64,000 nt of DNA from a virus (IMGVR_UViG_3300014541_000001:9504-73503); one strand, 5' to 3'. Counted from the stretch's first letter, positions 10,237-64,000 are shown. The notes: a model not told the origin generated them from the sequence alone. Numbers and translations are program-made.

Positions 10237-10728
10237 CTAATTAGTACTACCAATGCCACCTCTTGCCTTATTGCCAAGATTGTCCACCTGTACTAACTCT
10301 ACCTTATTACTAAATACCCATTTAAGCTTCTGCCATGCAGTTGCAAATTGGGAAGGAACAATCTCAAATTGACAAATCCTAGTACCTTTAGGTATAGTAG
10401 TTGCTTTGATAGCAAGTAATGGTGCCTTCCATTCATCTTCATCACCATTATAGGTGTTATCAATGATGCCAATACTATTGGCAATTTGCACACCACATTT
10501 ACTAGGTGTACTGCTTCTGCTATACACTTTAGCAATCATACCTTTAGGTAACTCCATTGCTACACCTAGTTTAGCTACATAGAGTTCACCTTTCTTCAAG
10601 GTTACATCTTCTGCTAATACTAGGTCAAAGCAATCAGATTTGTCTCCTTCTACTCGTATGGGCATACAGCCCAATGTTATCTCTTTAACTTTTACTTTCA
10701 TTTTTATATTTCCATTTATATCCAGCAT
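10237..10728 (-). CDS. dut: dUTP diphosphatase (trimeric dUTPase)
   Basis: RSSTPSK...GVQIANSIGIIDNTYNGDE (motif III) and C-terminal ARGGIGSTN (motif V RGxxGFGSTG). Confidence 0.8.
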   Translation of the reverse strand: MLDINGNIKMKVKVKEITLGCMPIRVEGDKSDCFDLVLAEDVTLKKGELYVAKLGVAMELPKGMIAKVYSRSSTPSKCGVQIANSIGIIDNTYNGDEDEWKAPLLAIKATTIPKGTRICQFEIVPSQFATAWQKLKWVFSNKVELVQVDNLGNKARGGIGSTN

Positions 10729-15159: not shown

Positions 15160-15607
15160 AACTTTTAATTACTTTAATTGCTTCCAACAACTGCCTTTTA
15201 CCAAATATTTCAAATATGAGATACTTGTCATGGTCAGGAAAGCTTTCAATAAGCTGTCTGAACATCTTGAATTTAACAGGAAAGACATCATTGACTTGTC
15301 CTTTAGCTTCAATAAATACCTTCATACCTTCATATTCAAGGTAAAAGTCTGGAGTGTAAGTAATATCACGTAACTTAGTAAGGTCTAGCTTTAGTAGTTC
15401 TTTCTTAGACTTTGTATAAAAAGGTACAGTAGGTTTACCTCCACTCCATAACACATACTTATGTGACTCATATTGTGGTTCAAGTCCATTATCAACTAAG
15501 GTCCTATAAACCATAGCCTCAATCTTGGACTTGAACTCAATATTAGCATATTGCGTTGGAGTAGCATTTTTAATCCTTCTGTTTTCCACTCTTTTTAGGT
15601 CTGGCAA
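15107..15607 (-). CDS. PD-(D/E)XK family nuclease (resolvase/endonuclease-like)
   Basis: TPDFYLEYEGMKVFIEAKG gives the canonical PD...E-x-K. Confidence 0.5.
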   Translation of the reverse strand: MPDLKRVENRRIKNATPTQYANIEFKSKIEAMVYRTLVDNGLEPQYESHKYVLWSGGKPTVPFYTKSKKELLKLDLTKLRDITYTPDFYLEYEGMKVFIEAKGQVNDVFPVKFKMFRQLIESFPDHDKYLIFEIFGKRQLLEAIKVIKSYGSSRENEKVNKSITKE

Positions 15608-18953: not shown

Positions 18954-20255
18954 CTATAAGATATAATCATCCAAACAACTAATATAAGACTTCATCCATA
19001 CATTTGATGGAAGTTCTTCAAGTGCAAGTCTTACTTCATAAGCAAGTATTGCAATCATCTCTGTGTCATCAAGTATATCAACCAATGTATCATCAGTTGT
19101 ATAATTGACTAAGAAATCAATGAAACCAACAGCAAAGTTTTCAAACTCCTTAACAGAATCAAATCTGTCTGAATACACCTTATCCATTGAGTTCATCCAC
19201 TTGTTGATGTCCACCTTGCTTTCAACTGGAAGAATAATACTACCAGTGATAATTTGTCTTACAAGCCAGTCAACAACCTTAGCATTTGCTCTTACTGTAC
19301 CATAAGGGATAGCATAATCATCATCAGGTTTTTCAAATGGAAGGTCTTTTTGAGTTGGTGCAGTATATGATGAACCCTGTGCAGGAAAGGAAGACTTATG
19401 TTCTTCAAACTCCTTCTTTGGCTGTCCATATTGACCTATGGGTACATAGTTACCACCTGCTGGTTTACCAGTGGCAGCACCTACCTGTAAGCCGGGGTAT
19501 CTACTTTGATAACCAGTGGTTCCATAGTTATTCCCATAACCATTGTAACCACCATAAGTAGCACCGGGTTTATATGCTTTCTTAGCTTTCTCTGCATCAA
19601 TTTCTTTCATGCGAGCAAGCATTTCCTTCTCAACTTCATCAACAGGAACAGTCTCTTTCTGAATCTCAAGAGGGAACCATTCAAGATATTCTTCTTCAGC
19701 TTCAAATTCATCAGTACCTGTGACTTCTCCTTCCTTCCAAGTAGGATAAGTGAACTCTTCTTTCACCTGTTGTTTGGCTTTATATCTCCTTGTAACTGCT
19801 GCACTATAAGTACCAGCATTGTTTACAATCAAAGACACAAAGTGTGCCATATCTTCACCCTCTTGACTTAATGTTCCTGTATCAGTTCCACTAAAGAAAG
19901 TAGCCATATTGTTATGACTATGAATAAGACCTTGAAACACATCTTCACTAAGCAATTCAGGATGGTCAATCATATAACTTACTATGTCAGGAGACACATT
20001 AAATTCTGTATAACCACCAGTTCCTTTATCCATCTGAAAGATGTCCACACACTTGATAGTCAAAGGATTGTCTTTATCATTAAAAGCACCTTCAACTTGA
20101 TAGAACAGTACTCCTGACCATTCTACTTGGCTAATGTGAGTACACAATAACCTGATTTTCTTTTCTACCTCTACAGGTATGATTATTTTATAGGGTAAAT
20201 CTGGTTTTCTTTTTATCAATTCCAGACTTGGCTTTTTTGCTGTTTCCATATTCAT
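18954..20255 (-). CDS. JAB/MPN+ (JAMM) metalloprotease with Gly/Tyr-rich low-complexity C-terminal region
   Basis: IHSHNNMATFFSGTD matches H-x-H-x7-S-x2-D; upstream Glu in QVEG. Confidence 0.7.
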   Translation of the reverse strand: MNMETAKKPSLELIKRKPDLPYKIIIPVEVEKKIRLLCTHISQVEWSGVLFYQVEGAFNDKDNPLTIKCVDIFQMDKGTGGYTEFNVSPDIVSYMIDHPELLSEDVFQGLIHSHNNMATFFSGTDTGTLSQEGEDMAHFVSLIVNNAGTYSAAVTRRYKAKQQVKEEFTYPTWKEGEVTGTDEFEAEEEYLEWFPLEIQKETVPVDEVEKEMLARMKEIDAEKAKKAYKPGATYGGYNGYGNNYGTTGYQSRYPGLQVGAATGKPAGGNYVPIGQYGQPKKEFEEHKSSFPAQGSSYTAPTQKDLPFEKPDDDYAIPYGTVRANAKVVDWLVRQIITGSIILPVESKVDINKWMNSMDKVYSDRFDSVKEFENFAVGFIDFLVNYTTDDTLVDILDDTEMIAILAYEVRLALEELPSNVWMKSYISCLDDYIL

Positions 20256-34289: not shown

Positions 34290-34327
34290 AAAAAAAAAAG
34301 GCTACCACTCATTGCTGAATGATAGCC
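34290..34327 (-). terminator. intrinsic terminator (minus strand) downstream of the tRNA-like RNAs
   Basis: Hairpin GGCTATCATTCAGCAATGAGTGGTAGCC followed by T10 on the minus strand. Confidence 0.6.
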
Positions 34328-34455
34328 TTATAGAAGTAGAACAGTTATAGTGGGTATTAACCTGTCAGTCAGTCTGTTAATCCGACAGGCACAAATTAAA
34401 TATATAGGCATTTTCATTTTATGAAGTAACCACTATATACACTAACTTCCATTTG

Positions 34456-37772: not shown

Positions 37773-37813
37773 ATCCCCAACTGGACTCGAACCAGTGTCT
37801 AAGGTAGTAATTG
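37773..37813 (-). pseudogene. 3'-half tRNA fragment
   Basis: ACTGG-TTCGAGT-CCAGT T-arm plus TGGGGAT acceptor 3' strand, with no matching 5' half. Confidence 0.3.
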
Positions 37814-37886
37814 TGGCTCAAATGAGGGTCCAACTCATAACCTTCTCCTTAGGACGGAGCTGCTCTATGCATTGAGCTATTGAGCC
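37814..37886 (-). tRNA. tRNA-Arg(CCU)-like with atypical T-loop
   Basis: Manual cloverleaf: GGCTCAA/TTGAGCC acceptor; D-arm GCTC..GAGC; loop GTCCTAA; T-loop TTGGACC is non-canonical. Confidence 0.5.
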
Positions 37887-38488
37887 TTCAATCTACCAAA
37901 GTATTCACTTTTGCCTTGTGGAGCATTTTTATTTCTGCTACCAAAGTTATCAGTTAAGGAATGACAATTAGGACAAAGTAACTGCAAGTTGTCTTCTTTA
38001 TTGTTAGTAGAATCTCCATCTATATGATGTATCTGTAGTGGTATTAATCCAGTATGAGGGTTAATCTCTGACCATCCACATACTTGACATTTATTATTAT
38101 ACTTCTCCATCATATATCTCCTTATGAATGAGCTGTATGTATATCCTGAAGTACCAGATATTTCTCCATTCTTCCACTTCATTATATTACTCTCATATTT
38201 GTGCCTTGATGCACATTCTATGCTGCAATAATCATGAGGTCTTGATGGTGCACATACAAATTCTCTTCCACAATAGACACAGATTGCTTTATTGGCTGTA
38301 CCTCTGTTGAAGTTTTCATTAGGATTAATAATTCTCCTACTAACAATAGGTATGCCTAGCCTAATAGCAGCTTTCTTTACTCCAGCACCTGTACAGTTGT
38401 ATATTCTACCTATTTGCTCATAACTTAACTTATCCTCAAGTATATACTTGGTTAAGTTCTCTTTTTCATTATTCCATCTCATATTCAA
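37877..38488 (-). CDS. HNH endonuclease with N-terminal sigma-70 region-4-like HTH
   Basis: CQVCGWSE...IHHIDGDSTNNKEDNLQLLCPNCH. Confidence 0.7.
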   Translation of the reverse strand: MNMRWNNEKENLTKYILEDKLSYEQIGRIYNCTGAGVKKAAIRLGIPIVSRRIINPNENFNRGTANKAICVYCGREFVCAPSRPHDYCSIECASRHKYESNIMKWKNGEISGTSGYTYSSFIRRYMMEKYNNKCQVCGWSEINPHTGLIPLQIHHIDGDSTNNKEDNLQLLCPNCHSLTDNFGSRNKNAPQGKSEYFGRLKAQ

Positions 38489-38655
38489 ACTTGTTTTTAA
38501 TTTGTATAAAGATACAAATAATAGTTTGAATATGCAATGGTCTAACTTAACTACTTACCTCCATTCTATCCCTTGACTTATGAGAGCATTTAGTAGTACT
38601 ATCTTCACAGACTATACTACTTAAAACCATTAAAATACAAGTTCTTTATATTTAA

Positions 38656-39114
38656 TTAACCGAAAAGAATCTCTTTATCAAGTTCTGTCAACATCTTGAA
38701 TGCCTTGATAGCACTTTCTTCATCCTTGAAGTACACAATACCTGCATATATTACAGTCTCATGCACGCAGATGCCAAGACTGTTACCCATATCTCTACTT
38801 GTGGTAAATCCTTGTTTTGATTGACCAATGAAGTAGCCTTTGTTATATGGAGTTCTCTTCCAATTCCCATTGAAGTATTTAGCCATTAAACATAATTTGG
38901 CATTAACATCAAATTTATCATGTTCTTCATAAGGAACTGTAACACAAGTAGTAGTGAGATTATTATCACCTAACTGCAACTTAATAGACTCATAAGAGAG
39001 TGCTAACTCCTGCTCTGAATATACTGTCAATGCCAGTTCTTTCAGCGCTTTGTTATTACCATTGAACCAGCATCTTGCTTGCTCAATAGATACTTTGACT
39101 GTTCTTGTTTCCAT
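38656..39114 (-). CDS. hypothetical protein
   Basis: 152-aa ORF. Confidence 0.45.
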   Translation of the reverse strand: METRTVKVSIEQARCWFNGNNKALKELALTVYSEQELALSYESIKLQLGDNNLTTTCVTVPYEEHDKFDVNAKLCLMAKYFNGNWKRTPYNKGYFIGQSKQGFTTSRDMGNSLGICVHETVIYAGIVYFKDEESAIKAFKMLTELDKEILFG

Positions 39115-39147
39115 TATATATTGTTATTAGTTAATTAATAAATATAA

Positions 39148-39177
39148 GGATAGACTATATTCACATACTGTCTATCC
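39148..39177 (-). terminator. perfect 8-bp inverted repeat (GGATAGAC..GTCTATCC), possible terminator
   Basis: Seen directly; the downstream tract is A/T-rich but not a clean U-run. Confidence 0.3.
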
Positions 39178-39203
39178 TATCCCCTTAATATTAACCACAT
39201 AAT

Positions 39204-39620
39204 TCAATCTTTATCACTTAATAATAGGACTGCTGTACCATTGTTGTTATAGATGATTGGTTCATAATTCTCCATCATCCTTAGAAGGTCAGCATTATAT
39301 TGGTTAGCATAATGTGAATTGCATCTCATGGATGTCTTCCACATATCATGTATTATATGATATGTTTCTTCATCCATTGATACAACTTCATTGTCAAAGC
39401 CTGCATCAAGGTCATCATAAATGAGCCAGTAGCAAGATTCACCAAGACTGTTGTGTGATTCCTTCATAGTGATAATATAGTATGGGAAGAATGATGCACT
39501 CTCCCATACTAAACTATCTTGTTTGTCTTCTTGCTGTGATTGAACCTTGCATGATACTATTGTTGTCATCATGGCAACACCTATCAGTGATAACCATAAC
39601 ATTAATCTTATTGCTTTCAT
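39204..39620 (-). CDS. secreted hypothetical protein
   Basis: N-terminal signal-peptide-like hydrophobic segment. Confidence 0.45.
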   Translation of the reverse strand: MKAIRLMLWLSLIGVAMMTTIVSCKVQSQQEDKQDSLVWESASFFPYYIITMKESHNSLGESCYWLIYDDLDAGFDNEVVSMDEETYHIIHDMWKTSMRCNSHYANQYNADLLRMMENYEPIIYNNNGTAVLLLSDKD

Positions 39621-39807
39621 TTGTTATTGGGTTTAAAGAACTAACAGGAGCAATGATGTGCTGATTATCAATCAAGATTATACTTCAATTTTTGCCTATG
39701 ATAAATGCTCCCGTTAGTATGTTATTTACTTAGTTTTCCTTTGAGTAATCCTTTGAGTTTAGCATACTCTTTGGTAAGATGTTCTTGCTTGAAGTCTTTC
39801 GTTGTCT

Positions 39808-40023
39808 TCATGCCTGTCTCCTTTCTCTAAAGGATTTAATCTCTTGCTGTATGTATGACTCAAACTGTTGTAAGTCATCAATTACTCTTGGTTTACTTGT
39901 AATAGCAAGTAATGCAACACTGTTATTGTTGTGTTGCTCTGTCAGGTAATTAATGTGTGCTCTTCTTGATGATGAGTAGTTGCTGCTACTAGCAACAGCT
40001 ACTCTGTTTAATCTCTTTCTCAT
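39808..40023 (-). CDS. hypothetical protein
   Basis: 71-aa ORF. Confidence 0.3.
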   Translation of the reverse strand: MRKRLNRVAVASSSNYSSSRRAHINYLTEQHNNNSVALLAITSKPRVIDDLQQFESYIQQEIKSFRERRQA

Positions 40024-40214
40024 ACTACATTTGTAATGTATCAGGGACTGCCACTATCACTACATTGTTGTAGTTTTCTTTGCATTTCTTTGCCACATCT
40101 TTGGCTTCTTCTTCTGTTGAACACAGATAGAAAGTCTTGTGCCCAAACCTCTTGTTGTCTGAGCATAATACTAGTCTTTTTCTCATGTGATTATGTATTA
40201 ATGGGTTAATGTTT

Positions 40215-40291
40215 TGAGGCTAATAGGAGACTTGAACTCCTAACCTTCCTTTACTCTGCAAGGATGCTCTAACCAATTGAGCTAATTAGCC
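40215..40291 (-). tRNA. tRNA-like gene with apparent 8-nt anticodon loop (GCAGAGTA), anticodon unassigned
   Basis: Acceptor GGCTAAT/ATTAGCC; D-arm GCTC-AATTGGTTA-GAGC; T-arm AGGAG-TTCAAGT-CTCCT; the only 5-bp anticodon stem (TCCTT/AAGGA) leaves 8 loop nt. Confidence 0.45.
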
Positions 40292-40695
40292 TATAGTTTA
40301 TATAAAGACTTGTTGCAATGCTATATGTCACATCAGGTATCTTCTCAATCAAATTAGCTTGATGCTGCTTTCTACTTTTTGATGTATCAGACGGTTCACC
40401 TCACATACTAACTTTGATGTTTAACACACCATAAACTAATACACATTTTTCGGATAGCTTGATACTATTGTCAACCACTATTTGTACATATTTAGCTGGT
40501 CAAAAGCCTTTATTATCTTATTTTATTGGTATACTAGTTCTTGTTTAACACAATTTAATGGCTTGTGTTCAATGACAAATGACTACTATTGTTCATCAGT
40601 TGTCTACCTAAGTGGTACATTGGAGTAAATACTAAAGGGTAAATAATGTTATTATCTAGTGTATTCTTAGTGAGTGGTACTTCAACTGTGAGGAG

Positions 40696-40730
40696 TAAAA
40701 AAGGTAGGAAGGGACATAAGCCCCTTCCCT
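40696..40730 (-). terminator. intrinsic terminator (minus strand)
   Basis: Minus strand: GGGAAGGGGCTTATGTCCCTTCC then TACCTTTTTTAC. Confidence 0.55.
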
Positions 40731-40737
40731 CATTACC

Positions 40738-41052
40738 CTAGAATGCAGCAATCACATTACTGTTAGTCCCTTGCTCATGCAATGTCAGCAAAGTCTTGCC
40801 CTCTTTGGTTCTCACTTCACTGACAACAACAGTCTCAAATGGCTGCTTGGCTACCATTTTAGCAGCCAACTTGTCAGCCACATAGCCAACAATGTTGCCA
40901 CATGCAAAGAAGAACTTGCCCTGTTTATTAGGGGAAGGAATAACTCGCAAAGGTTGGTTACCTTGAGAAGCCTTAACTTCTTCTACAGTCACTGTGTTCA
41001 AGAAATTGGAATCACTGTTGCTAGTAGCAACATACTTTGAAAAATCAATCAT
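40738..41052 (-). CDS. hypothetical protein
   Basis: 104-aa ORF; last gene of the minus-strand block. Confidence 0.45.
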   Translation of the reverse strand: MIDFSKYVATSNSDSNFLNTVTVEEVKASQGNQPLRVIPSPNKQGKFFFACGNIVGYVADKLAAKMVAKQPFETVVVSEVRTKEGKTLLTLHEQGTNSNVIAAF

Positions 41053-41243
41053 GATAGTATGGTTTAATAATTGTGCCGGGGGAATATCCCAAGGCTAAGG
41101 TAAGGGGGAGGAGGAAGAGTGACTTATGCCCCACTCACGTAAATATCACAAATAAAAAATTAAAAAAAAAATTAAAAATAATATGGATACAACACTAATA
41201 AGTTAAACTTTCATAAAAGATTTGGATATGTTATTTATTTTAC

Positions 41244-41254
41244 TTACCTTTGTA
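41244..41254 (+). promoter_or_regulatory. Bacteroidetes-type -7 promoter box TTAccTTTGtA with TTTG about 20 nt upstream
   Basis: First plus-strand promoter motif after the strand switch; about 290-nt leader before the first plus ORF. Confidence 0.4.
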
Positions 41255-41546
41255 CCATGGCGTAGGTCCTCATAGCCTACATCCCCTGTGATATATAACA
41301 AAAAGGAGTTAGCAGGGCAGACAGAGGATTGATAATCTCAAATAGAGATGAAGTTTTCTCCTCTAGCCATAATTAGGGTAAGAATATGAAGATGTCAGTG
41401 ATGCACCAATATGAGTGAGAAAAGGTTGAGGGTAAAGCATCCTAGGGGTAAACCGCCTGACTATAAGTATCTTACTAAAACAGAATAGCCATATTAACAA
41501 CTTAGGGTTTGGCTCCTAGGGATAACTATATAAAAGAAAAAACAAT

Positions 41547-41927
41547 ATGAAGAAGTTTATATTATGGTTGTGGCAATTACCACAGAATATATGTGGTGTA
41601 GTTTATAGAAAAATTATAAAGGATGATATAATAGCTCAAGTCAATACTGACTCAGGATATAACATATATCTGACTGAAACTAATAGAGGTGGAGTCACTC
41701 TTGGGGAGTACATATTTGTGTACCAGAAGTACACAAATATATCAGGAGTTATTCAACATGAGACAGGTCATGTAAAGCAATCAAGAATACTAGGACCATT
41801 GTACTTGTTAGTGATTGGATTACCCTCTATTGTACATGCAACACTACACAGAGTATTATGTAGAAATAATAACTATTATCACTTCTATACAGAGAAATGG
41901 GCTAATAAACTAGCAGGATTAGAATAA
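41547..41927 (+). CDS. small HExxH-motif protein (putative zinc metallopeptidase)
   Basis: VIQHETGHVKQS carries an HExxH motif; 126 aa. Confidence 0.4.
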   Translation: MKKFILWLWQLPQNICGVVYRKIIKDDIIAQVNTDSGYNIYLTETNRGGVTLGEYIFVYQKYTNISGVIQHETGHVKQSRILGPLYLLVIGLPSIVHATLHRVLCRNNNYYHFYTEKWANKLAGLE

Positions 41928-41931
41928 TAAT

Positions 41932-42552
41932 ATGAGAAAAGACTTTATTACAGTTACCCCTGATGGGGGGGAGGTAGGCACTACTGATATTCAAGTAACT
42001 GCTGATGCCAATATAGGAACAGCTCCAAGAAGCACTATTTTAAATCTCACTACTTCAGGTCAAAGTTCAGAACAAGTAGAGATAAATCAGTTGGGAAATT
42101 CATTTCAATTGTTTGTTTTTCCCCATTTTACTTTAGCTACATCTTCTTCATCCATAACACCCTCTTTAACTATAATTTTAGATAGGCTGGATTATGATGA
42201 AGTAGAATTTAGAGGACAAACATTTAATACACCATTTTATGGTGTTCAAACAGTAAGGGGTACAGGTTTAACTATATATGACTTATACCTTGATTTTACA
42301 CTATTATTCTCCATTGATGTTATTAATAAGTTGAAAATAACTAAGTTTTCAGGTCATGTTATCTCTGGTACTGGTAATGCTTTTGATGTAGATTTTCAAC
42401 GACAACAGAGTGAAACTAATTTAGGAGTTAGAGAATTTAGTTTAAGAACAGGTGATATAAGTACATTAAATACTCTACATGAAGTGACCATTTATGCTCA
42501 TATTCAAGGAGGAGAAGTAGTGCAGATATGTAGGATAGAAAATGCTTATTAA
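41932..42552 (+). CDS. hypothetical protein
   Basis: 206-aa ORF. Confidence 0.45.
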   Translation: MRKDFITVTPDGGEVGTTDIQVTADANIGTAPRSTILNLTTSGQSSEQVEINQLGNSFQLFVFPHFTLATSSSSITPSLTIILDRLDYDEVEFRGQTFNTPFYGVQTVRGTGLTIYDLYLDFTLLFSIDVINKLKITKFSGHVISGTGNAFDVDFQRQQSETNLGVREFSLRTGDISTLNTLHEVTIYAHIQGGEVVQICRIENAY

Positions 42553-42605
42553 AACATTATTAACATAATAAATAAGATAAGATTTGCATATCTCAATTAT
42601 TTTAC

Positions 42606-42616
42606 TTACCTTTGCA
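42606..42616 (+). promoter_or_regulatory. Bacteroidetes-type -7 promoter box TTAccTTTGCA for the tRNA array
   Basis: 24 nt upstream of the first tRNA. Confidence 0.5.
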
Positions 42617-42640
42617 GCATCATTCAATTGATGAGTTTAT

Positions 42641-42714
42641 TGCCCCTTGGTGTAATTGGTTAGTCACATAGGATTTTGATTCCTATAGTATCAGTTCAAG
42701 TCTGGTAGGGGTAA
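42641..42714 (+). tRNA. tRNA-Gln(UUG)
   Basis: Manual cloverleaf; loop TTTTGAT; T-arm ATCAG-TTCAAGT-CTGGT. Confidence 0.55.
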
Positions 42715-42720
42715 CATAAT

Positions 42721-42794
42721 GCTCCCTTAGTTCAATGGATTAGAACATTGCTCTTCTAAGGCAAGTGTTAGGGGTTCGAGTCCCTTAGGGAGTA
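42721..42794 (+). tRNA. tRNA-Arg(UCU)
   Basis: Loop CTTCTAA; T-arm AGGGG-TTCGAGT-CCCTT. Confidence 0.65.
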
Positions 42795-42875
42795 CATGAC
42801 TTTGGAATGGATATAAATTGTTTTTGTAATAAAATGAATAGACTAATTGGTCTGTGAAGATAAACTAATCAAAAT

Positions 42876-42949
42876 GGTGGGTTGGACAAATTGGTTAAGT
42901 CACTGCCCTTTCAAGGCAGTCATTAGGGGTTCAAATCCCCTACCCATTA
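42876..42949 (+). tRNA. tRNA-Glu(UUC)
   Basis: Anticodon arm CTGCC-CTTTCAA-GGCAG; T-arm AGGGG-TTCAAAT-CCCCT. Confidence 0.6.
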
Positions 42950-42957
42950 CAAATTTA

Positions 42958-43028
42958 GTCTATGTAGCTTAATGGTTAAAGTGCTGCACTGTCAATGCAG
43001 AGAACAGGGTTCAATTCCCTCATAGACT
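42958..43028 (+). tRNA. tRNA-Asp(GUC)
   Basis: Anticodon arm CTGCA-CTGTCAA-TGCAG; acceptor GTCTATG/CATAGAC. Confidence 0.6.
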
Positions 43029-43083
43029 GCGAGTTTCTACGCCATGAAACAAGTCCTATATTAAGCGTAATATAGGCAGGAAT

Positions 43084-43174
43084 GGAAGAATAAGCCTAAT
43101 GGTAAGGCAGTAGTCTTGAAAACTACTAGTAATCATGTAAAAGTGATGTGTCAGTTCGAGTCTGACTTCTTCCT
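43084..43174 (+). tRNA. tRNA-Ser(UGA), class II long variable arm
   Basis: Anticodon arm GTAGT-CTTGAAA-ACTAC; long variable arm; T-arm GTCAG-TTCGAGT-CTGAC; acceptor GGAAGAA/TTCTTCC. Confidence 0.7.
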
Positions 43175-43176
43175 CT

Positions 43177-43374
43177 ATGATACAGATACTAAGAAAAGAA
43201 GGTTGGATATTAAATCCTAATGATAAGGTAGTAAATGCTATCCTTAAGAGATGTGAGATTAATGATGGTGAATGTCCTTGCCATAATGAAGGAGAAGACA
43301 AACACTGTCCATGTAGTGATTACAGAGAAAAGGATGAATGTCATTGTGGGTTATATGTCAAATTGGAGAGTTAA
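43177..43374 (+). CDS. small Cys-rich protein (CPC..CPC..CHC)
   Basis: 65-aa ORF with ECPCHNEGEDKHCPCSDYREKDECHCG, located between tRNAs. Confidence 0.35.
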   Translation: MIQILRKEGWILNPNDKVVNAILKRCEINDGECPCHNEGEDKHCPCSDYREKDECHCGLYVKLES

Positions 43375-43457
43375 CCTAAGAGGTCTTAGGGACTGCCTGC
43401 TAAGCAGATTGTACCAGTAATTGGTATATGTTTCAAGTACATAGCTCTCCGCATAAT

Positions 43458-43530
43458 ATAGGTGTAATTCAGTTGGTAGAATGCTGGCTTTGGGAGCCAG
43501 TTGCCCTAGGTTCGAGTCCTAGTACCTATA
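43458..43530 (+). tRNA. tRNA-Pro(UGG)
   Basis: Anticodon arm CTGGC-TTTGGGA-GCCAG; T-arm CTAGG-TTCGAGT-CCTAG. Confidence 0.65.
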
Positions 43531-43537
43531 CTTAATG

Positions 43538-43610
43538 GGTCATGTAGTGTAAATGGCTAACACACCATCCTTGCAAGATGGAATTGGGGTTCAAGTCCCA
43601 CATGTATCCA
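43538..43610 (+). pseudogene. tRNA-Ala(UGC)-like gene with non-pairing acceptor/T stems
   Basis: Good D-arm and anticodon arm CCATC-CTTGCAA-GATGG, but the acceptor strands (GGTCATG vs CATGTAT) and T-stem do not pair. Confidence 0.3.
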
Positions 43611-43672
43611 CTTTGTTTTCATGTTTTCATAATGTTTTAGATAGGTTGCCAGTAGCCTTAATACTGGCTAAT

Positions 43673-43746
43673 TGCTTCTTAGTTCAGTGGTTAAGAACAG
43701 CTCTCTTACACAGAGAAGGTCATAGGTTCAATTCCTATAGAAGCAA
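43673..43746 (+). tRNA. tRNA-Val(UAC)
   Basis: Loop CTTACAC; T-arm ATAGG-TTCAATT-CCTAT; acceptor TGCTTCT/AGAAGCA. Confidence 0.6.
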
Positions 43747-43821
43747 CATTTAGACACTACTACAGTTAGCAGTAAATCAGTACATACTGTAGATGTATTG
43801 GTTGAATGGTGTCTATCTAAT

Positions 43822-43896
43822 GGGTTTGAAGCTTAAGTGGTATAAAGCAAAAGACTGTTAATCTTGAGACAGTAGGTTCGAGTCCTACCAAGCCCG
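43822..43896 (+). tRNA. tRNA-Asn(GUU)
   Basis: Loop CTGTTAA; T-arm GTAGG-TTCGAGT-CCTAC; acceptor GGGTTTG/CAAGCCC. Confidence 0.6.
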
Positions 43897-43915
43897 CAGT
43901 TAAATTGGAAGAGTT

Positions 43916-44236
43916 ATGATTGTACAAGTAGAAGATAGAAGTAAGATTAAGAAGGTACACTTTAAACATCCTTACCTCTTTGGTCCAGATGCTGAACAGC
44001 ATGTTATCAATATGTACAAGGATATATTGGAGACAGATGACCAGTTGACCTTAGCAAGGCAATTAGTAAGAGACCTAGAGAAAGAGTTAAAGGAAAAGAA
44101 GGATAAATTCACTGAAATTGAAGCAATGTGTACTATGGAATTTGAGCAAAAGGAAGTGGAACATGTTGATGTAGTTAAGTCTAACATGGCAGTGATTAAT
44201 CCAACAGATGCTAGTAATAGAAACTATACTGGGTAG
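43916..44236 (+). CDS. hypothetical protein
   Basis: 106-aa ORF in the tRNA array. Confidence 0.35.
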   Translation: MIVQVEDRSKIKKVHFKHPYLFGPDAEQHVINMYKDILETDDQLTLARQLVRDLEKELKEKKDKFTEIEAMCTMEFEQKEVEHVDVVKSNMAVINPTDASNRNYTG

Positions 44237-44300
44237 TAGTTTAATGGTAAAACCTTAGTCTCCAAAACTAAATTTAGAGGTTCGATTCCTTTCTACTCAG
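44230..44300 (+). tRNA. tRNA-Trp(CCA)
   Basis: Anticodon arm TTAGT-CTCCAAA-ACTAA; T-arm AGAGG-TTCGATT-CCTTT. Confidence 0.6.
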
Positions 44301-44337
44301 CATTATGTGCATGTCTTCTAATTGGTTAGAAGAATAT

Positions 44338-44414
44338 AGGGACTTATCCCCTCTGTCTGATAAGCAGTTGAAAGGGTAGTTGGTTACAGTTGAGTTCAAT
44401 TCTCAAAGTCCCTA
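44338..44414 (+). ncRNA. tRNA-like element with unresolved cloverleaf
   Basis: Acceptor AGGGACT/AGTCCCT pairs; T-arm TTGAG-TTCAATT-CTCAA; the central 39 nt does not fold as canonical D/anticodon arms. Confidence 0.3.
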
Positions 44415-44416
44415 CT

Positions 44417-45001
44417 ATGATAGATGAAGAAATAAGAAATAACATATTGAACTTATATAGTTCAGGAAAAACTTTGCCTTATATATGCAAGGCTTTAAAA
44501 GTGTCCAAAGCTACAGTATCATATCAGATTAACAAGGCTGGAATCTCAAGATATAGAAACTCTGTGAAGATTACAGAAAAAATACTTGAGGATATGCAAA
44601 GTAGATATGACGAATGTAAAGACTTAAGGATAGTTAGTAAGGAGTTTGGAGTATCAATTAACAGACTAAAGCTTTTAAAGAGAAGACCTTCTCAAACCAA
44701 TTATGAGATATTAAGAAATAGAAGATATAGAATTAAGCAAGAGCTTGTTGAATATAAGGGAGGAAAATGTCAAGTATGTGGATATGATAGATGTCTATCA
44801 GCTCTTGAGTTTCATCATTTAGACCCAGCAAGGAAAGATTTCACTATATCTTCTAATATGAAATATGCTAGTTTAGAGGACTTAAAAGATGAGACAAATA
44901 AGTGTATTTTGGTGTGTTCAAACTGTCATAGAGAAATACATGCAGGAATAGTAAATATAGAAGATATTTCTTACAAAGGTAAGCATGGTTTAGAATCATG
45001 A
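44417..45001 (+). CDS. HNH endonuclease with N-terminal HTH (start set to ATG at 44417)
   Basis: KCQVCGYDRCLSALEFHHLDPARKDF...ILVCSNCHREIH. Confidence 0.65.
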   Translation: MIDEEIRNNILNLYSSGKTLPYICKALKVSKATVSYQINKAGISRYRNSVKITEKILEDMQSRYDECKDLRIVSKEFGVSINRLKLLKRRPSQTNYEILRNRRYRIKQELVEYKGGKCQVCGYDRCLSALEFHHLDPARKDFTISSNMKYASLEDLKDETNKCILVCSNCHREIHAGIVNIEDISYKGKHGLES

Positions 45002-45007
45002 AAGATT

Positions 45008-45080
45008 GTGTAGTTAGCTTAAATGGAATAGAGCACTGGATTGTGACTCCAGAGGATAGGGTTCAACTCCCTGCTACACC
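45008..45080 (+). tRNA. tRNA-His(GUG)
   Basis: Anticodon arm CTGGA-TTGTGAC-TCCAG; T-arm TAGGG-TTCAACT-CCCTG. Confidence 0.6.
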
Positions 45081-45086
45081 CTTTAT

Positions 45087-45160
45087 ACTCACATAGCTCA
45101 GCAGGTTAGAGCAGGAATCTTATACATTCAAGGTCAGGGGTTCAAATCCCTTTGTGAGTA
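45087..45160 (+). tRNA. tRNA-Ile(UAU)
   Basis: Acceptor ACTCACA/TGTGAGT; D-arm GCTC-AGCAGGTTA-GAGC; loop CTTATAC. Confidence 0.55.
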
Positions 45161-45164
45161 CTAT

Positions 45165-45237
45165 CTCCAGTTGTCTGAATGGTTTAGGTCCTAGTCTGCA
45201 AAACTATGGTATGTTGGTTCAAATCCAATACTGGAGT
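45165..45237 (+). tRNA. tRNA-Cys(GCA)
   Basis: Loop CTGCAAA; T-arm GTTGG-TTCAAAT-CCAAT; acceptor CTCCAGT/ACTGGAG. Confidence 0.55.
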
Positions 45238-45239
45238 CT

Positions 45240-45449
45240 ATGGAAGATAAATTAGATAAGATACTGAAGAATCAAGAGATAATTAATAGGAACCAAGTTA
45301 CAATATACAGAGAGTTACTATTAGTTGAATCAAGACTCTTTAAGAGTGAAAGCAAAGAGTTCCTTAGAAACTATTTGGCAGATATAGCAGGTACTATTAC
45401 TGCTGAGTTAGGTCTTGTGGACCTTCTTAATGCTATAAAGAAAGCATAA
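45240..45449 (+). CDS. hypothetical protein
   Basis: 69-aa ORF in the tRNA array. Confidence 0.35.
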   Translation: MEDKLDKILKNQEIINRNQVTIYRELLLVESRLFKSESKEFLRNYLADIAGTITAELGLVDLLNAIKKA

Positions 45450-45523
45450 GTTCCTATAGCTGAATTGGTTAAAGCACCTGTCTCTTAAACAGGGGACTCA
45501 AGGTTCAAGTCCTTGTGGGAACA
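45450..45523 (+). tRNA. tRNA-Lys(CUU)
   Basis: Anticodon arm CCTGT-CTCTTAA-ACAGG; T-arm CAAGG-TTCAAGT-CCTTG. Confidence 0.65.
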
Positions 45524-45543
45524 CATTAACCTTGGCAGGTTTA

Positions 45544-45616
45544 TTCCCCTATAGCAGACAGGTGTAGGCAATTGACTTTTAATCAATGAGGTGAGGTTCG
45601 ATTCCTCATGGGGGAA
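45544..45616 (+). tRNA. tRNA-Lys(UUU)
   Basis: Anticodon arm ATTGA-CTTTTAA-TCAAT; T-arm TGAGG-TTCGATT-CCTCA. Confidence 0.6.
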
Positions 45617-45620
45617 CACA

Positions 45621-45705
45621 TTGAAGTATAACCGGTAATTGGTAGCCGCAAAGACTGTAAATCTTTTCCCTATGGGACTGGGGGTTCGATTCCCTCTACT
45701 TCAAC
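45621..45705 (+). tRNA. tRNA-Tyr(GUA), class II
   Basis: Anticodon arm AAAGA-CTGTAAA-TCTTT; long variable arm hairpin TCCCTATGGGA. Confidence 0.65.
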
Positions 45706-45713
45706 ATTTTAAT

Positions 45714-45788
45714 GGGTACTTGGTGTAGGTGGTTATTGCACGTGGGTCTGAAAAACCCAAGGCTCTGATTCGATTTCAGAAGTTCCCA
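45714..45788 (+). tRNA. tRNA-Phe(GAA)
   Basis: Anticodon arm TGGGT-CTGAAAA-ACCCA; T-arm TCTGA-TTCGATT-TCAGA. Confidence 0.6.
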
Positions 45789-45805
45789 CTTTAAAAATAC
45801 TAAAC

Positions 45806-46252
45806 ATGAAAGAATGTAAGAGATGTCATGTAATAAAGGAAGATAGTGAATTTGCTTTCAGAAACAAAGCAAAGGGTACATTACAACCTTACTGCAAAGA
45901 ATGCAAAAGAGAAATAGATAAGGAACTTTATGACTCAAATCACTCAGATAGAAGAAGAAAAATAAGAGATAGGCAGAATGAAGTTCAGACTAATCTAAAG
46001 GAGCTTTTGACTAATATTAAAAAGAACTCAAAGTGTGCTATATGTGGTGAAAGTAGATGGTGGGTTCTTGACTTTCATCATTTGAGAGATAAAAGATTTG
46101 AGGTATCTTCTTTAGCAAGAAGAGGATGCTCCTTAGAAACTTTCAAGGAAGAGATAAATAAGTGCATAGTAATTTGTGCTAATTGTCATAGAGATTTGCA
46201 CTTCAAAGAGAGTGAGGAATACAATAAATGGGGTAATGAAAAGAGAGCTTAA
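45806..46252 (+). CDS. HNH endonuclease
   Basis: CKRCH...CKEC; KCAICGESRWWVLDFHHLRDK...IVICANCHRDLH. Confidence 0.7.
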   Translation: MKECKRCHVIKEDSEFAFRNKAKGTLQPYCKECKREIDKELYDSNHSDRRRKIRDRQNEVQTNLKELLTNIKKNSKCAICGESRWWVLDFHHLRDKRFEVSSLARRGCSLETFKEEINKCIVICANCHRDLHFKESEEYNKWGNEKRA

Positions 46253-46279
46253 GTTCAATTCTTAGAGTTCCCACATTAT

Positions 46280-46354
46280 GCCCTCTTGGCGGAATGGTTA
46301 AGACGCACTGGATTTAGGCTCCAGATATTATAGGTTCGACTCCTATAGAGGGTA
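46280..46354 (+). tRNA. type-I (short variable arm) tRNA with anticodon UAG
   Basis: Anticodon arm CTGGA-TTTAGGC-TCCAG; 5-nt variable region ATATT; T-arm ATAGG-TTCGACT-CCTAT. Confidence 0.55.
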
Positions 46355-46404
46355 CAATTAACATATTTTATTTGAATAAGTTTGCATAGTTCAGCTATTA
46401 TACA

Positions 46405-46414
46405 TACCTTTGCA
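46405..46414 (+). promoter_or_regulatory. Bacteroidetes-type promoter (-33 TTTG at 46381, -7 TAccTTTGCA)
   Basis: 20-nt spacing between the boxes; 21 nt upstream of ATG 46435. Confidence 0.5.
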
Positions 46415-46434
46415 AACATAATAATAATGACAAC

Positions 46435-46902
46435 ATGGAACCTTTTTTAAGAGGGGGTTTGCTGACACCATTAGATGATGTAAATGTAGTAGCCCCAGCA
46501 AGTAATGAGTTCAATATCTTCCTTCACTTTGTGAATGTACTTGAAGGTATTAAGACACAGATAAAGAATGTACATTGGGCATCACTCAAGTTACCTAATA
46601 GGGACAAGAGAGGAGCACACTTATACCTTGATGACTTTGTAGATATAGTAGGAGACTTTCAAGACACAGTAGCAGAAAGTGCCACTGGTATTACAGGTGT
46701 TTCCTTTGACTTTAATACAGTAAGTGCTATTCCTTTTAATGCTTCATCAACATCAGAATTGATGGAATATGTCAAGAATAAAACTACTGAGTTCTATAAT
46801 AGTTTACCAACAAGTCCTATATATGCTGGTATTAAGTCTGAAACAGAGACTTTTATCAATAATATAGTGATTTATATCTATAGGTTTAGGCTAACTGAAT
46901 AA
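46435..46902 (+). CDS. Dps/ferritin-like protein
   Basis: NVHWASLKL...HLYLDDFVDIVGDFQDTVAESATG resembles the Dps HW..G..F..lH...D...D..AER core. Confidence 0.4.
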   Translation: MEPFLRGGLLTPLDDVNVVAPASNEFNIFLHFVNVLEGIKTQIKNVHWASLKLPNRDKRGAHLYLDDFVDIVGDFQDTVAESATGITGVSFDFNTVSAIPFNASSTSELMEYVKNKTTEFYNSLPTSPIYAGIKSETETFINNIVIYIYRFRLTE

Positions 46903-46903
46903 T

Positions 46904-46980
46904 GGCTCAGTGGTGCAACTGGTGAAGACACAACACTCTTAAACAGTGTAAAGTAAGGGTTCGAGTCCCTTCTGAGTCAC
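46904..46980 (+). tRNA. type-I (short variable arm) tRNA with anticodon UAA; CCA encoded
   Basis: Anticodon arm ACACT-CTTAAAC-AGTGT; 5-nt variable AAAGT; T-arm AAGGG-TTCGAGT-CCCTT; 3' ...CTGAGTCACCA. Confidence 0.55.
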
Positions 46981-46988
46981 CAGCTAAT

Positions 46989-47059
46989 GGATTGGTAGTT
47001 TAATGGTAAAATATCTCTCTTGTAAAGAGCAGTTCACAGTTCGATTCTGTGCCTTTCCT
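46989..47059 (+). tRNA. tRNA-Thr(UGU)-like, weak acceptor stem
   Basis: Loop CTTGTAA; T-arm CACAG-TTCGATT-CTGTG; acceptor GGATTGG/CCTTTCC has two central mismatches. Confidence 0.4.
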
Positions 47060-47255
47060 CAACAAGTTAGTAACTGTCACTCTATTCAGTGAGGCTAACA
47101 CTCCTTGGCTTATAGAGTCTATTTGGTGAGCTGCCACCCACTAGTCCTGCGGAGACTAAATGAAAAAGAGCTATATTAAGATAGAGGCATGAAGGAGAGT
47201 TCCAGCAAAGGGTAAACTGGAAAGGAGTGGTACTACAATCCAAATCCACTCAAAT

Positions 47256-47328
47256 GTAGGTATGGTGTTAGTGGTCAGCATATGACATTGCCAATGTCAA
47301 GGGGTCAGTTCAAGTCTGATTATCTACT
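47256..47328 (+). tRNA. tRNA-Gly(GCC)
   Basis: Anticodon arm TGACA-TTGCCAA-TGTCA; T-arm GTCAG-TTCAAGT-CTGAT. Confidence 0.6.
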
Positions 47329-47332
47329 CAAT

Positions 47333-47403
47333 GCAGTATTGGTGTAATGGTAACATGTCACCCTTCCAAGGTGAATTTGACAGTTCGAATCTGTTATACT
47401 GCT
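47333..47403 (+). tRNA. tRNA-Gly(UCC)
   Basis: Anticodon arm TCACC-CTTCCAA-GGTGA; acceptor GCAGTAT/ATACTGC. Confidence 0.6.
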
Positions 47404-47453
47404 CATTATTGTGGGGAGATTAGGTAATCCAATTAGTCTCATAAGCTAATTAA

Positions 47454-61050: not shown

Positions 61051-61311
61051 ATGAAAGAGAATATTATAATTAACCAAGATATGAAGGTGCAATCCCTTCA
61101 AGTATCTAAGATAAAGAATATACCAGCAGGCAACTTTGCACCCGGATTAATGTTTCTATTAAAGAACATTACAGAGGATAATATCTCTATTGAGATAAGA
61201 CCTGCTGGACAAGAGGAATTCATTACTACAGTTTTATATCCCGGATGGAATGTAGAACTAGTTAGTGCTGTTAACAATGTAACTGAAAACACATTACAAT
61301 ATGGTTTCTAG
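61051..61311 (+). CDS. hypothetical protein
   Basis: 86-aa ORF. Confidence 0.4.
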   Translation: MKENIIINQDMKVQSLQVSKIKNIPAGNFAPGLMFLLKNITEDNISIEIRPAGQEEFITTVLYPGWNVELVSAVNNVTENTLQYGF

Positions 61312-61777
61312 AACAGGTATAGGAGCAGGTATTGGTATTCCTTTTAAGAATAATGCCTTAAAGGGGGATAAACCTTATCTTCCTCCTGAAATTAAAGATA
61401 GTCTAAAAGCAGTAGTGATTGCTTATGGAAAGACTAATAATGATTCTGATAGAGCTATAGTTAAGAACTTGGTAGACCCCGACAACCCGTTCATCATTAG
61501 CAACGCAGTTTTCAAGCTCAACAGCGGATTTGGAGGTTTTGTAGAAGATTTTACTTCATGGGATAGAATAGATAGTAGTACTGTCGAAATTTCCAATGAT
61601 GGTAGTAAGATAAAATGTATAAATACTACACTTAATGTTCAGTATCTTTTTAATTCTATTAATAGGGATATCCCATCTTTTAAAGTTAAGATTTCAAATT
61701 TTACAAAAGGCGATATTACTTATTACTATCGTAAAGAGGACGGAATAGAAGCATTTTTTAAAATTACCCCCCCTTAG
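61301..61777 (+). CDS. hypothetical protein; ends 2 nt after a C7 tract (N-terminal part of a possibly frameshifted fibre gene)
   Basis: ..FFKITPP* with ccccccc at 61767-61773. Confidence 0.45.
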   Translation: MVSRTGIGAGIGIPFKNNALKGDKPYLPPEIKDSLKAVVIAYGKTNNDSDRAIVKNLVDPDNPFIISNAVFKLNSGFGGFVEDFTSWDRIDSSTVEISNDGSKIKCINTTLNVQYLFNSINRDIPSFKVKISNFTKGDITYYYRKEDGIEAFFKITPP

Positions 61778-64000
61778 TGTAGTTAATTCTGATAAAGTAA
61801 TAGAATTACCTAAGTCATATAATACTGTTGAAAATGGAACAGGTGGTAGGGGAGGATTTTATTCTTCTAATATAAATATTGGAGTAACTATCGAGCAAAT
61901 CCCCTCTTTTGAAGGAGCATTCGTCACCGACGGAGTTAACGACCTGATTACTTCCACCAAGACCGTACAGGAGATGGGTATTACTAATGAGGTTACAGTC
62001 GTTAGTATGATTCATCAAATTAATGCTAATAAAAATTTTACTACTACAAATAATCTTAGAAGTGAAAGTAGAGTTATAGGTAGAAATACAGTTACCAATA
62101 TAGGTAAAACTGGAATATATGGATGGTACAAAGAAGACCTTAAAGGAACAACTGCAACTCTAATAAGTAATATATTAGGAGATAAGAATGACTATACAGG
62201 GCATTATATAGAAAGCACTAATCCAATCACTAATTCTAAGTTTTATGTAACGGGTTATGCTGTTGAAAATGGTTTTACTGAATTATCTTCCGTTGCTTGG
62301 TACTGGACAATCATCGCCAACAAGGTACTGACTTCCGACCAAATCAATCAGGTTATCGCCTACTTTAACTTGGATAGATGCGTTGAGCCTACTGTACTGT
62401 ATGATGTTAAGAGACAGGGGTTATCTAACGATACTCCGGATTCTGATTGGTATCTGAAAGACTATTCCGGTAATGGGTATGATATGACATTATACAACTA
62501 TGCCAAAACCCCAGAAAGCGGAATTAATGAAGATGGAGGATTGCAATCTGACGGAGTAGAGGACTATGGTAAAGTAACAGGGCTGCCGATTTACAAGGAT
62601 TATACAGTGGTTGCTGACTACGAAAGATTTAATATAGAAAACATTGAAGGCATTGGTACTCCCCCTGTATTATCTAAATCTTATACTGCTGGACAAGGTT
62701 CTTTCATTATGAACTTTATTGCTAGTACTGAAAATAGCATTCGTTCATATTCTTTTGGAGCAGAAAATACTAGAAATTTTAGTGACTTAGCTAGACAGAT
62801 TTTTTATCAATCTAAGTACAAGAGTCAAGGATTTGACATAACTGCTGGTACAGGTATTGATGGTGATTCTTTGTGGTTAGGCACAGTAAGAGATAACGAT
62901 AGCCGTTTCTTTAACGGAGCTATCTACTCTCTCATGACTTTCCCCTATAGTATGTCTGAGTTCCTCATCGAACGTCAGCTAAAGAAGCACAAGCTGGGTA
63001 CGCTGTATCCTAATATGGTTGAATTTAGACCTGTTATTAAGAGTAATGCTTCGTATGACAATATCGTATTTTATTATAAAAATGAGAAAGTAGAAAATGG
63101 GACTTATCTTACGGTTGGTTCTTCTATTGGTATGCACATACGTTTAAGTAGTAATTCTGTTAATGAAATAAAATCTATTACTATTAATGGAATTCCAGCT
63201 ACTTTTAATTTTCATGATGTTAATAATAACATATATCAATATGATTTCAATCTAACTTCCAAGTCCCCTCAAAAGATAAACATCACAATTGACGAGTACA
63301 TCAGATACGAGGACATTGTTCAGCCATATCCAGTTCTATTGAGATTCAAGGATGAGAATGGTAATGAAGTATCTTGGGGAGGTAAATTCAAAGTTGGTTC
63401 TACTATTACTAGAATAGGTAGTATTGCTGACCCTGAAAGCAATCTATTAAATGGTTTATATTCTATTTCAGGATTGTCTTTAAATGGTAAAGGTGTTACT
63501 AGTACTACTAGTATCGTTGAAAAGCAAATGGTATTTAAAACTATTGCAACTTATCTTCTTGACAATAATGAACCTAAATGTATTCTTTCTCCTAGACTAT
63601 TGAGAATACCTAACCCTAGTTATAAGATATTAGGTTACATTCCCGATATATCCGGTCATGGTAATCATGGAGTTATTCATAACTCGGCTTATGCAGAAGG
63701 AAGTGGAGTAAATGAAGATGGTTCATACCAGTTGGATGGTGTAGATGACCATATTACTATTCCTACTTTGTCTAGTGGAGGTAAGCAGGTGTTAATGAAA
63801 GTGAATTTGCCAAGATTAAATGAGAGTATCTATGACCAAAGAAAAGAAACAAACACTTACACTTTTGCTATTCTAACAACACCGTCCCAATTTGCTTATG
63901 ATCAAAGGAATAGTGAAAGAATTACGTATATTGATGGCATCTTAAACACAAATATTATAGCAGAACAACTAATGGGTGTAACTCACAATATTGTAGTTAT
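61749..64000 (+). CDS. 3'-partial tail fibre protein with two LamG/ConA-like lectin domains; no in-frame start near its 5' end
   Basis: Manual translation in frame 0 from 61749 is stop-free to the window end (>740 aa); motifs NEDGGLQSDGVEDYGKVTGLP and NEDGSYQLDGVDDHITIPTL. Confidence 0.55.

Follow-up and report, generated by a model that had tools for sequence, protein, structure and literature searches.

Hypermutable polyG tracts have been described in genes of Campylobacter phages (Fletchervirus) (Sorensen et al. 2021, Cell Rep 35:109214, cited in PMC10877375). Reportedly, the length of a G/C homopolymer in a gene of the host-recognition region sets the reading frame there, thereby creating subpopulations, and these tracts are the closest described system to the locus reported here. 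The present tract differs in being a C6/C7 run in one cassette allele that is known from assemblies, and in its host and phage group, which are Bacteroides and Crassvirales. The Campylobacter phage tracts are reportedly longer, and high-frequency switching with phenotypic consequences is said to have been shown for them experimentally. Frame changes in fiber genes are also known from phage lambda, where the side tail fiber gene stf was first annotated as orf401 and orf314 and where hot spots of this gene repeatedly acquire frameshifts under conditions that penalize high adsorption (PMC2762979). There, as here, a frameshift splits an accessory fiber gene into two ORFs; the lambda case differs in that it comes from laboratory and experimental evolution with a measured fitness effect, whereas the present locus is known from metagenome assemblies. 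Frame junctions can furthermore be bridged during translation, as at the +1 sites CCC_UGA in the tail-shaft gene tsh of the Listeria phages PSA, A118, and A500, which are also shift-prone in E. coli, or in the thymidine kinase gene of herpesvirus, where an indel in a G7 run is compensated at a low level (PMC5009743).

Here, we analyzed a stretch of 64,000 nt of viral DNA, in the following called the window. It is identical to the ENA contig ERZ1742901 NODE_34 (104,737 nt, k-mer coverage 9.3) and derives from a crAss-like (Steigviridae-like) Bacteroides phage of the human gut, with a genome backbone ~77% identical to PhiCrAssBcn and crAss001-like phages of Bacteroides intestinalis. We consider it likely that the window carries the frameshifted off allele of one large lectin-fiber gene and that a real slipped-strand C6/C7 polymorphism accounts for it.

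An earlier note on this DNA had drawn attention to a run of seven C directly ahead of the stop of a 158-aa ORF and to a long frame that is open from there to the window end. The run and the ORF were confirmed by the sequence and the ORF listing, and the open frame was found as described; the features are compiled in Table 1. Around the run, the upstream frame reads GCA TTT TTT AAA ATT ACC CCC CCT TAG. The note was also right that the downstream frame lacks an early ATG, while the position of about 61960 given for the first one has to be corrected to 61974, which is the only ATG, GTG, or TTG codon in the +1 frame between 61749 and 61990. Gene callers begin the downstream part at this codon, thereby obtaining a protein of 1084 aa (P0002). 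The frame extends beyond the window to a stop at the window-equivalent position 65228 in L005, which covers this contig at greater length; in ERZ1742901 NODE_34, this stop is located 3.9 kb from the gene start. The exact 158-aa product (P0001) is present on three public contigs, and the 158-aa ORF is preceded by an 86-aa gene (61051-61311) overlapping its start by 11 nt. When one C is removed, the codons at the run become ACC CCC CTT (T-P-L), and both frames fuse into a single ORF. The fusion product, predicted earlier to exceed 900 aa, comprises 1308 aa. As such, the C7 run is statistically ordinary, as the 64 kb contain two G/C runs of at least 7 nt, shuffled sequences contain 0.6 on average, and 13% of the shuffles reach two; it becomes meaningful by its position, which is precisely the site that homologues cross without a change of frame.

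Table 1. Positions of the features at the C-run, counted from the first nucleotide of the window
Feature	Position	Strand	Remark
5′ fragment of the fiber-region gene, 158-aa ORF with ATG start	61301..61777	+	TAG at 61775-61777
C7 homopolymer, polymorphic tract	61767..61773	+	C6 in frame, C7 out of frame
Remainder of the gene, +1 frame	61749..64000	+	750 codons, stop-free to the window end
Swappable cassette of ~135 aa with the C-run inside	61511..61922	+	approximate boundaries

The 158-aa and 1084-aa ORFs are one gene, which belongs to the tail-fiber gene cluster and encodes a modular 1308-aa homologue of crAss002 gp22 with predicted ConA-like lectin domains. Using the first 363 aa of the fused protein as tblastn query, matches were obtained in 16 phage records, and in 14 of these the alignment runs over the junction in a single piece that spans 80% of the query or more. 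Three homologues, crAss002 gp22 (1197 aa), cr107_1 gp_13154 (1093 aa), and cr52_1 gp15 (1149 aa), are each annotated as a single CDS and resemble the fused protein in one piece over these N-terminal 363 aa with 42-50% identity, but differ from the window gene in being intact, in lacking the C-tract, in carrying other cassettes, and in their annotation as 'hypothetical protein'. In crAss002 (gp21/gp22) and cr107_1, the small preceding gene overlaps the homologue by 11 nt, as it does in the window. Upstream neighbors in the window are a head-fiber gene (PF11133), a gene for a 1407-aa collagen-like tail fiber, and a BACON-domain gene, and because of its position after these genes the encoded protein is regarded as a putative tail fiber. 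Sequence homology together with the conserved gene position places the gene among those for crAss002 gp22-like tail-fiber-module proteins. In the structural atlas of crAss001, additional tail-fiber proteins attached to gp22 are poorly resolved (PMC10172136).

Of the LamG/ConA-like assignment proposed earlier, the ConA-like part was supported and the LamG part was not. A ConA-like lectin/glucanase beta-sandwich fold is supported by structure prediction, not by Pfam; searches with the 1308-aa protein gave no LamG or Laminin_G match (including Laminin_G_3) in Pfam at E ≤ 1 and no match in PHROG. In the predicted structure of the homologue P0004, the junction corresponds to residue 233, which has a pLDDT of ~94 and lies within a beta-rich domain, so that the break in the window would fall inside a folded domain and not at a domain boundary or in a linker.

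Both tract lengths were found in the same strain. The exact C6 product of the window gene is present in a public protein collection (P0123, with JGI and ENA sources), while an exact look-up of the product of a C9 version in this collection gave no entry. P0123 is encoded on the contig L019 (JGI 3300014540, 104,761 nt). In a comparison of 12.7 kb of this contig with the window, one SNP (51603) and the indel in the C-run were the only differences, and no further indels were present. As strain set, we took 14 contigs sharing an identical neighboring protein of 200 aa. About nine of these have C6 and about four C7, and one ends ahead of the run; these counts are not independent, since a small number of samples may have been assembled repeatedly and may thus account for several contigs. 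The C7 contigs are ERZ1742901 NODE_34 and three places collapsed with it as similar. Those with C6 (L021-L025) are from Logan SRR2155379, JGI 3300014540, ERZ27274426, ERZ28600066 (SAMN03922511), and ERZ27274411, to which four collapsed places are added; for the collapsed places, i.e. 7 of the 14 contigs, the alleles were presumed from gene calls. In the 2.4 kb upstream, the strain contigs show zero mismatches. The extra C is either a real polymorphism or, at the least, reproduced over assemblies.

Three contigs (L024, L025, and L026) end close to the run, in the region equivalent to window positions ~61736-61850; the ends are located 31 nt before it, 51 nt after it, and 75 nt after it. Such ends fit a branching assembly graph, caused either by heterogeneity of the tract or by cassette mosaicism; the break points do not correspond exactly to a simple k-mer bubble.

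The polymorphism also occurs among relatives. For its detection, exact-pattern scans with the flanks of the run were carried out, allowing 4-12 bases in between. Thereby, C6 was found in the IMG/VR contig L004 and in the metagenome contigs L006-L008, and C7 in the contig L009; no tract length other than C6 or C7 was found within the allowed range. In the scan of genome contigs, the single match was due to chance, as it came from an unrelated MAG and had 10 nt other than C between the flanks. On the protein level, P0003, P0004, P0010, P0011, and P0014 read KITPLSVV at the corresponding site, which is the C6 product (with the DNA read for P0003, P0010, and P0014), whereas P0085 ends with KITPPQCS, which corresponds to C7 with the TAG translated as Gln, and is encoded on two small contigs that are identical in the aligned block. 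Over 308 nt (61585-61892), the window is identical to the C6-bearing contigs L012 and L014 except for the extra C, and in the same way L009 is identical to the C6-bearing L004 over 390 nt (61523-61912). Between the window and L009, differences are present at 61656, 61673, 61675, and 61845. C7 is therefore present on two flanking haplotypes, each of which also exists with C6, which implies that the insertion arose at least twice. The second C7 lineage comprises L009, L010, and L011, contigs with a k-mer coverage of 1.3. As simplest reading, the flanking sequences point to two independent changes from C6 to C7; a single origin of C7 with spread by recombination was rejected, as it would require that the converted stretch was shorter than 170 nt. 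Of the two forms, the in-frame C6 one is ancestral, and both occur in the strain of the window.

The tract is part of a cassette inserted in the first lectin-like domain and bounded, at approximate positions, by the motifs FKLNSGFG and IEQIPSFEGAF. The cassette is absent from P0028, P0046, P0068, P0079, and P0087, and other, unrelated versions take its place in P0008, P0009, P0012, and P0013. Among the mosaic relatives, L004, L006, L008, and L009 share the block around it (~61442-62015) with 93.6-96.4% identity, and L007 matches over a longer stretch with 86% identity. This block and a second one of the gene (62290-63840) also match phages of the Intestiviridae and Suoliviridae and Bacteroides phages of 166-179 kb (DAC16-23, SJC03), in both cases with 85-96% identity, which indicates that fiber modules were swapped well outside the lineage of the window phage. 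Short natural homologues of 266 aa (L015, 3001-3801) and 417 aa (L016, 6001-7254) were observed in other crAss-like genomes. They are directly followed by unrelated genes and end at other positions, via recombination and not at the C-run; their existence indicates that the distal ~1000 aa are dispensable or replaceable. In the gene of homologues with other cassettes, no G/C run of at least 6 nt was found. P0005 reads INPL where the cassette of the window has ITPL, and the shorter run at this site is a back-translation, not a DNA reading. In the relatives L003 (cr52_1) and L012-L014, which have the same cassette, in-frame stops under translation table 11 or translations mismatching the called protein were observed, pointing to stop-codon recoding in these relatives.

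For a slipped-strand locus, the tract should lie in frame, a change of its length should shift the frame, and length differences between otherwise identical genomes and independent recurrence of the change should be seen; all of this was found here. Slipped-strand mispairing during replication of the phage DNA would add the seventh C, which shifts the frame and leads to the TAG after 158 residues, inside the folded domain of the cassette. Thereby, the ~1150 residues that follow would be severed from the N-terminal part. The gene would then effectively be off, with a low-level leak at most. Such an off allele may be tolerated or sometimes even favored, the gene being an accessory, highly plastic fiber or adhesin gene; this is plausible because of the plasticity of the locus and the natural versions of 266 and 417 aa.

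Among the alternatives to such a slipped-strand polymorphism, a technical artefact is the one that survives best, though we regard it as unlikely. C6 would then be true everywhere, and the seventh C would be a homopolymer miscall, the result of PCR slippage in the library, or a consensus error of the assembly. Homopolymers are classic sites of indel errors, the contigs of the second C7 lineage have the low coverage given above, and the three strain contigs ending within 75 nt of the run show that the assembly is unsettled hereabouts. On the other hand, the C7 form occurs on about four strain contigs from ENA and JGI sources, one of them with a k-mer coverage of 9.3, and the C-run is the sole indel between C6 and C7 genomes over 12.7 kb, although the window contains 117 runs of at least 5 nt. 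The contig names are of SPAdes and MEGAHIT style, and one sample, labeled LOUI16/SAMN03922511, may belong to PRJNA290729, a study with Illumina HiSeq 2500. Moreover, a G7 run of the same genome (41965-41971) is invariant over the same set of contigs: the protein containing it is present on nine contigs, as are four of the other neighboring proteins looked up, while the rest of these are on six to eight, and this equal count indicates that the G7 run is stable in the same assemblies. When indels of ±1 nt were simulated in all 117 homopolymers of at least 5 nt, only the junction at the C-run and three gene overlaps were flagged. A general homopolymer sequencing error was rejected, as no other frame break at a homopolymer was found in the window.

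The three flagged overlaps are located between minus-strand ORFs (10685-10728, 15570-15607, and 20188-20255), have a length of 38-68 nt, and would each allow a 1-nt indel to merge the two ORFs. Those at 15570-15607 and 20188-20255 are kept in phage DAC15 and are therefore ordinary overlaps, not frameshifts; for the one at 10685-10728, DAC15 has a homologue of only one of the two ORFs. The G7 run lies in an ORF of 206 aa (41932-42552), 11 codons from its start and right after an internal out-of-frame ATG. In related strains, products of 195 aa starting from the internal ATG (MGGVG... or MGGAG...) and an in-frame variant of 205 aa occur, which indicates that the region of the G7 tract also varies by indels among relatives. 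The window further contains two A10 runs, both outside of coding sequence. One is located next to a GC-rich hairpin (34290-34330) and reads as an intrinsic terminator of the minus strand (hairpin followed by T10), the other (41162-41171) in a divergent intergenic region.

Still less probable is recoding, by which the C7 form would nevertheless yield the full-length protein, either via a +1 shift at CCC_C or via a −2 shift from CCU while UAG occupies the A site, and either as a programmed event or as low-level compensation of the indel. The site ACC CCC CCU UAG, with its proline codons followed by a stop, resembles the CCC_UGA sites of the Listeria phages PSA, A118, and A500, with which it shares the location in a phage structural-gene region and a rare CCC proline codon by the stop at a frame junction; CCC accounts for 33 of the 525 proline codons in the window ORFs, and the phage encodes a tRNA-Pro(UGG). 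Low-level compensation has a precedent in the indel of the G7 run of herpesvirus thymidine kinase (PMC5009743). In the Listeria phages, however, the out-of-frame state is conserved and two products are made, whereas here conservation is lacking: other contigs of this strain and the closest relatives have the ancestral C6 form, a plain ORF, and more distant homologues are without any tract. Also, the codon before the stop is CCC in the Listeria sites but CCU here, with poor re-pairing in the +1 frame. Within CCC CCU UAG, a +1 shift from CCC to CCC re-pairs well, but the A site is then occupied by CCU, the commonest proline codon; with UAG in the A site, a +1 shift leads to CUU, a poor codon for tRNA-Pro, and only a −2 shift re-pairs. 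Folding of 61760-61880 gave no significant downstream stimulatory RNA structure (z = −0.24 compared to shuffles). A programmed frameshift, one of the options left by the earlier note next to phase variation and assembly error, is therefore disfavored, and leaky low-level recoding is unlikely as main explanation, just as an artefact is; the most likely reading is the C6/C7 polymorphism among contigs of the same strain.

Some further decoding routes were rejected. Read-through of the TAG as Gln adds only Q-C-S before the TAA at 61784-61786, which is how P0085 ends. All three stop codons are in use in the window (TAA 27, TGA 10, TAG 8), which indicates the standard code. A −1 slippage on TTTTTTAAAA (61754-61763) leads to the wrong frame. 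A quadruplet-decoding tRNA was considered because of a tRNA gene on the minus strand (40216-40291; Rfam tRNA, 53.5 bits), which has a cloverleaf fold and an anticodon loop of 8 nt, GCAGAGUA, but such a tRNA would read CUCU and not the C-run. ARAGORN assigns to this gene the four-base anticodon 'agag', the usual U33 is missing, and a search of the phage collection gave no close relative. The gene may encode a tRNA that reads quadruplets or is unusual in another way, or it may be decayed. In total, an array of 24 tRNA genes was observed (37813-47404), including that for tRNA-Pro(UGG) at 43458-43531.

Hardly credible is the idea of two polypeptides by design, i.e. a functional 158-aa protein and a separate, likewise functional protein of ~1084 aa from the ATG at 61974: gene callers do annotate two proteins and other phages have short versions (266 and 417 aa), but these end elsewhere, by recombination, the break lies within a confidently folded predicted domain, the 66 codons from the tract to the ATG (61776-61973) are homologous coding sequence that would stay untranslated, AGGAG directly abuts this ATG with zero spacer, and the fused form is present in the same strain.

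Returning to the slipped-strand polymorphism, its existence has consequences for annotation even without adaptive switching, since the publicly available split into proteins of 158 aa and 1084 aa is one gene. Also, for metagenome-assembled phages the state of homopolymers needs to be checked before host range is deduced from fiber genes. Whether the polymorphism goes further and represents a true phase-variation switch, which would call for fast, reversible, or adaptive switching, with a crAss-like population in the gut of one person flipping an accessory lectin fiber on and off via C6 and C7, is a more doubtful proposal, which we put forward tentatively. The tract is short relative to classical contingency loci, and the conservation of a long tract over relatives, by which its maintenance by selection could be recognized, was not observed, as it comprises 6-7 nt in one cassette. 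It belongs to this cassette only and is missing from other members of the family, and thus nothing points to selection having kept it over long times. If the proposal is true, Crassvirales would have their first case of a receptor-binding gene switched by a homopolymer, and flipping would alter which capsule or glycan variants of Bacteroides the phage adsorbs to, as a phage-side counterpart of the phase-variable capsules of the hosts. Flips between an intact and a broken gene within a strain would thereby offer these phages cheap variation in adsorption.
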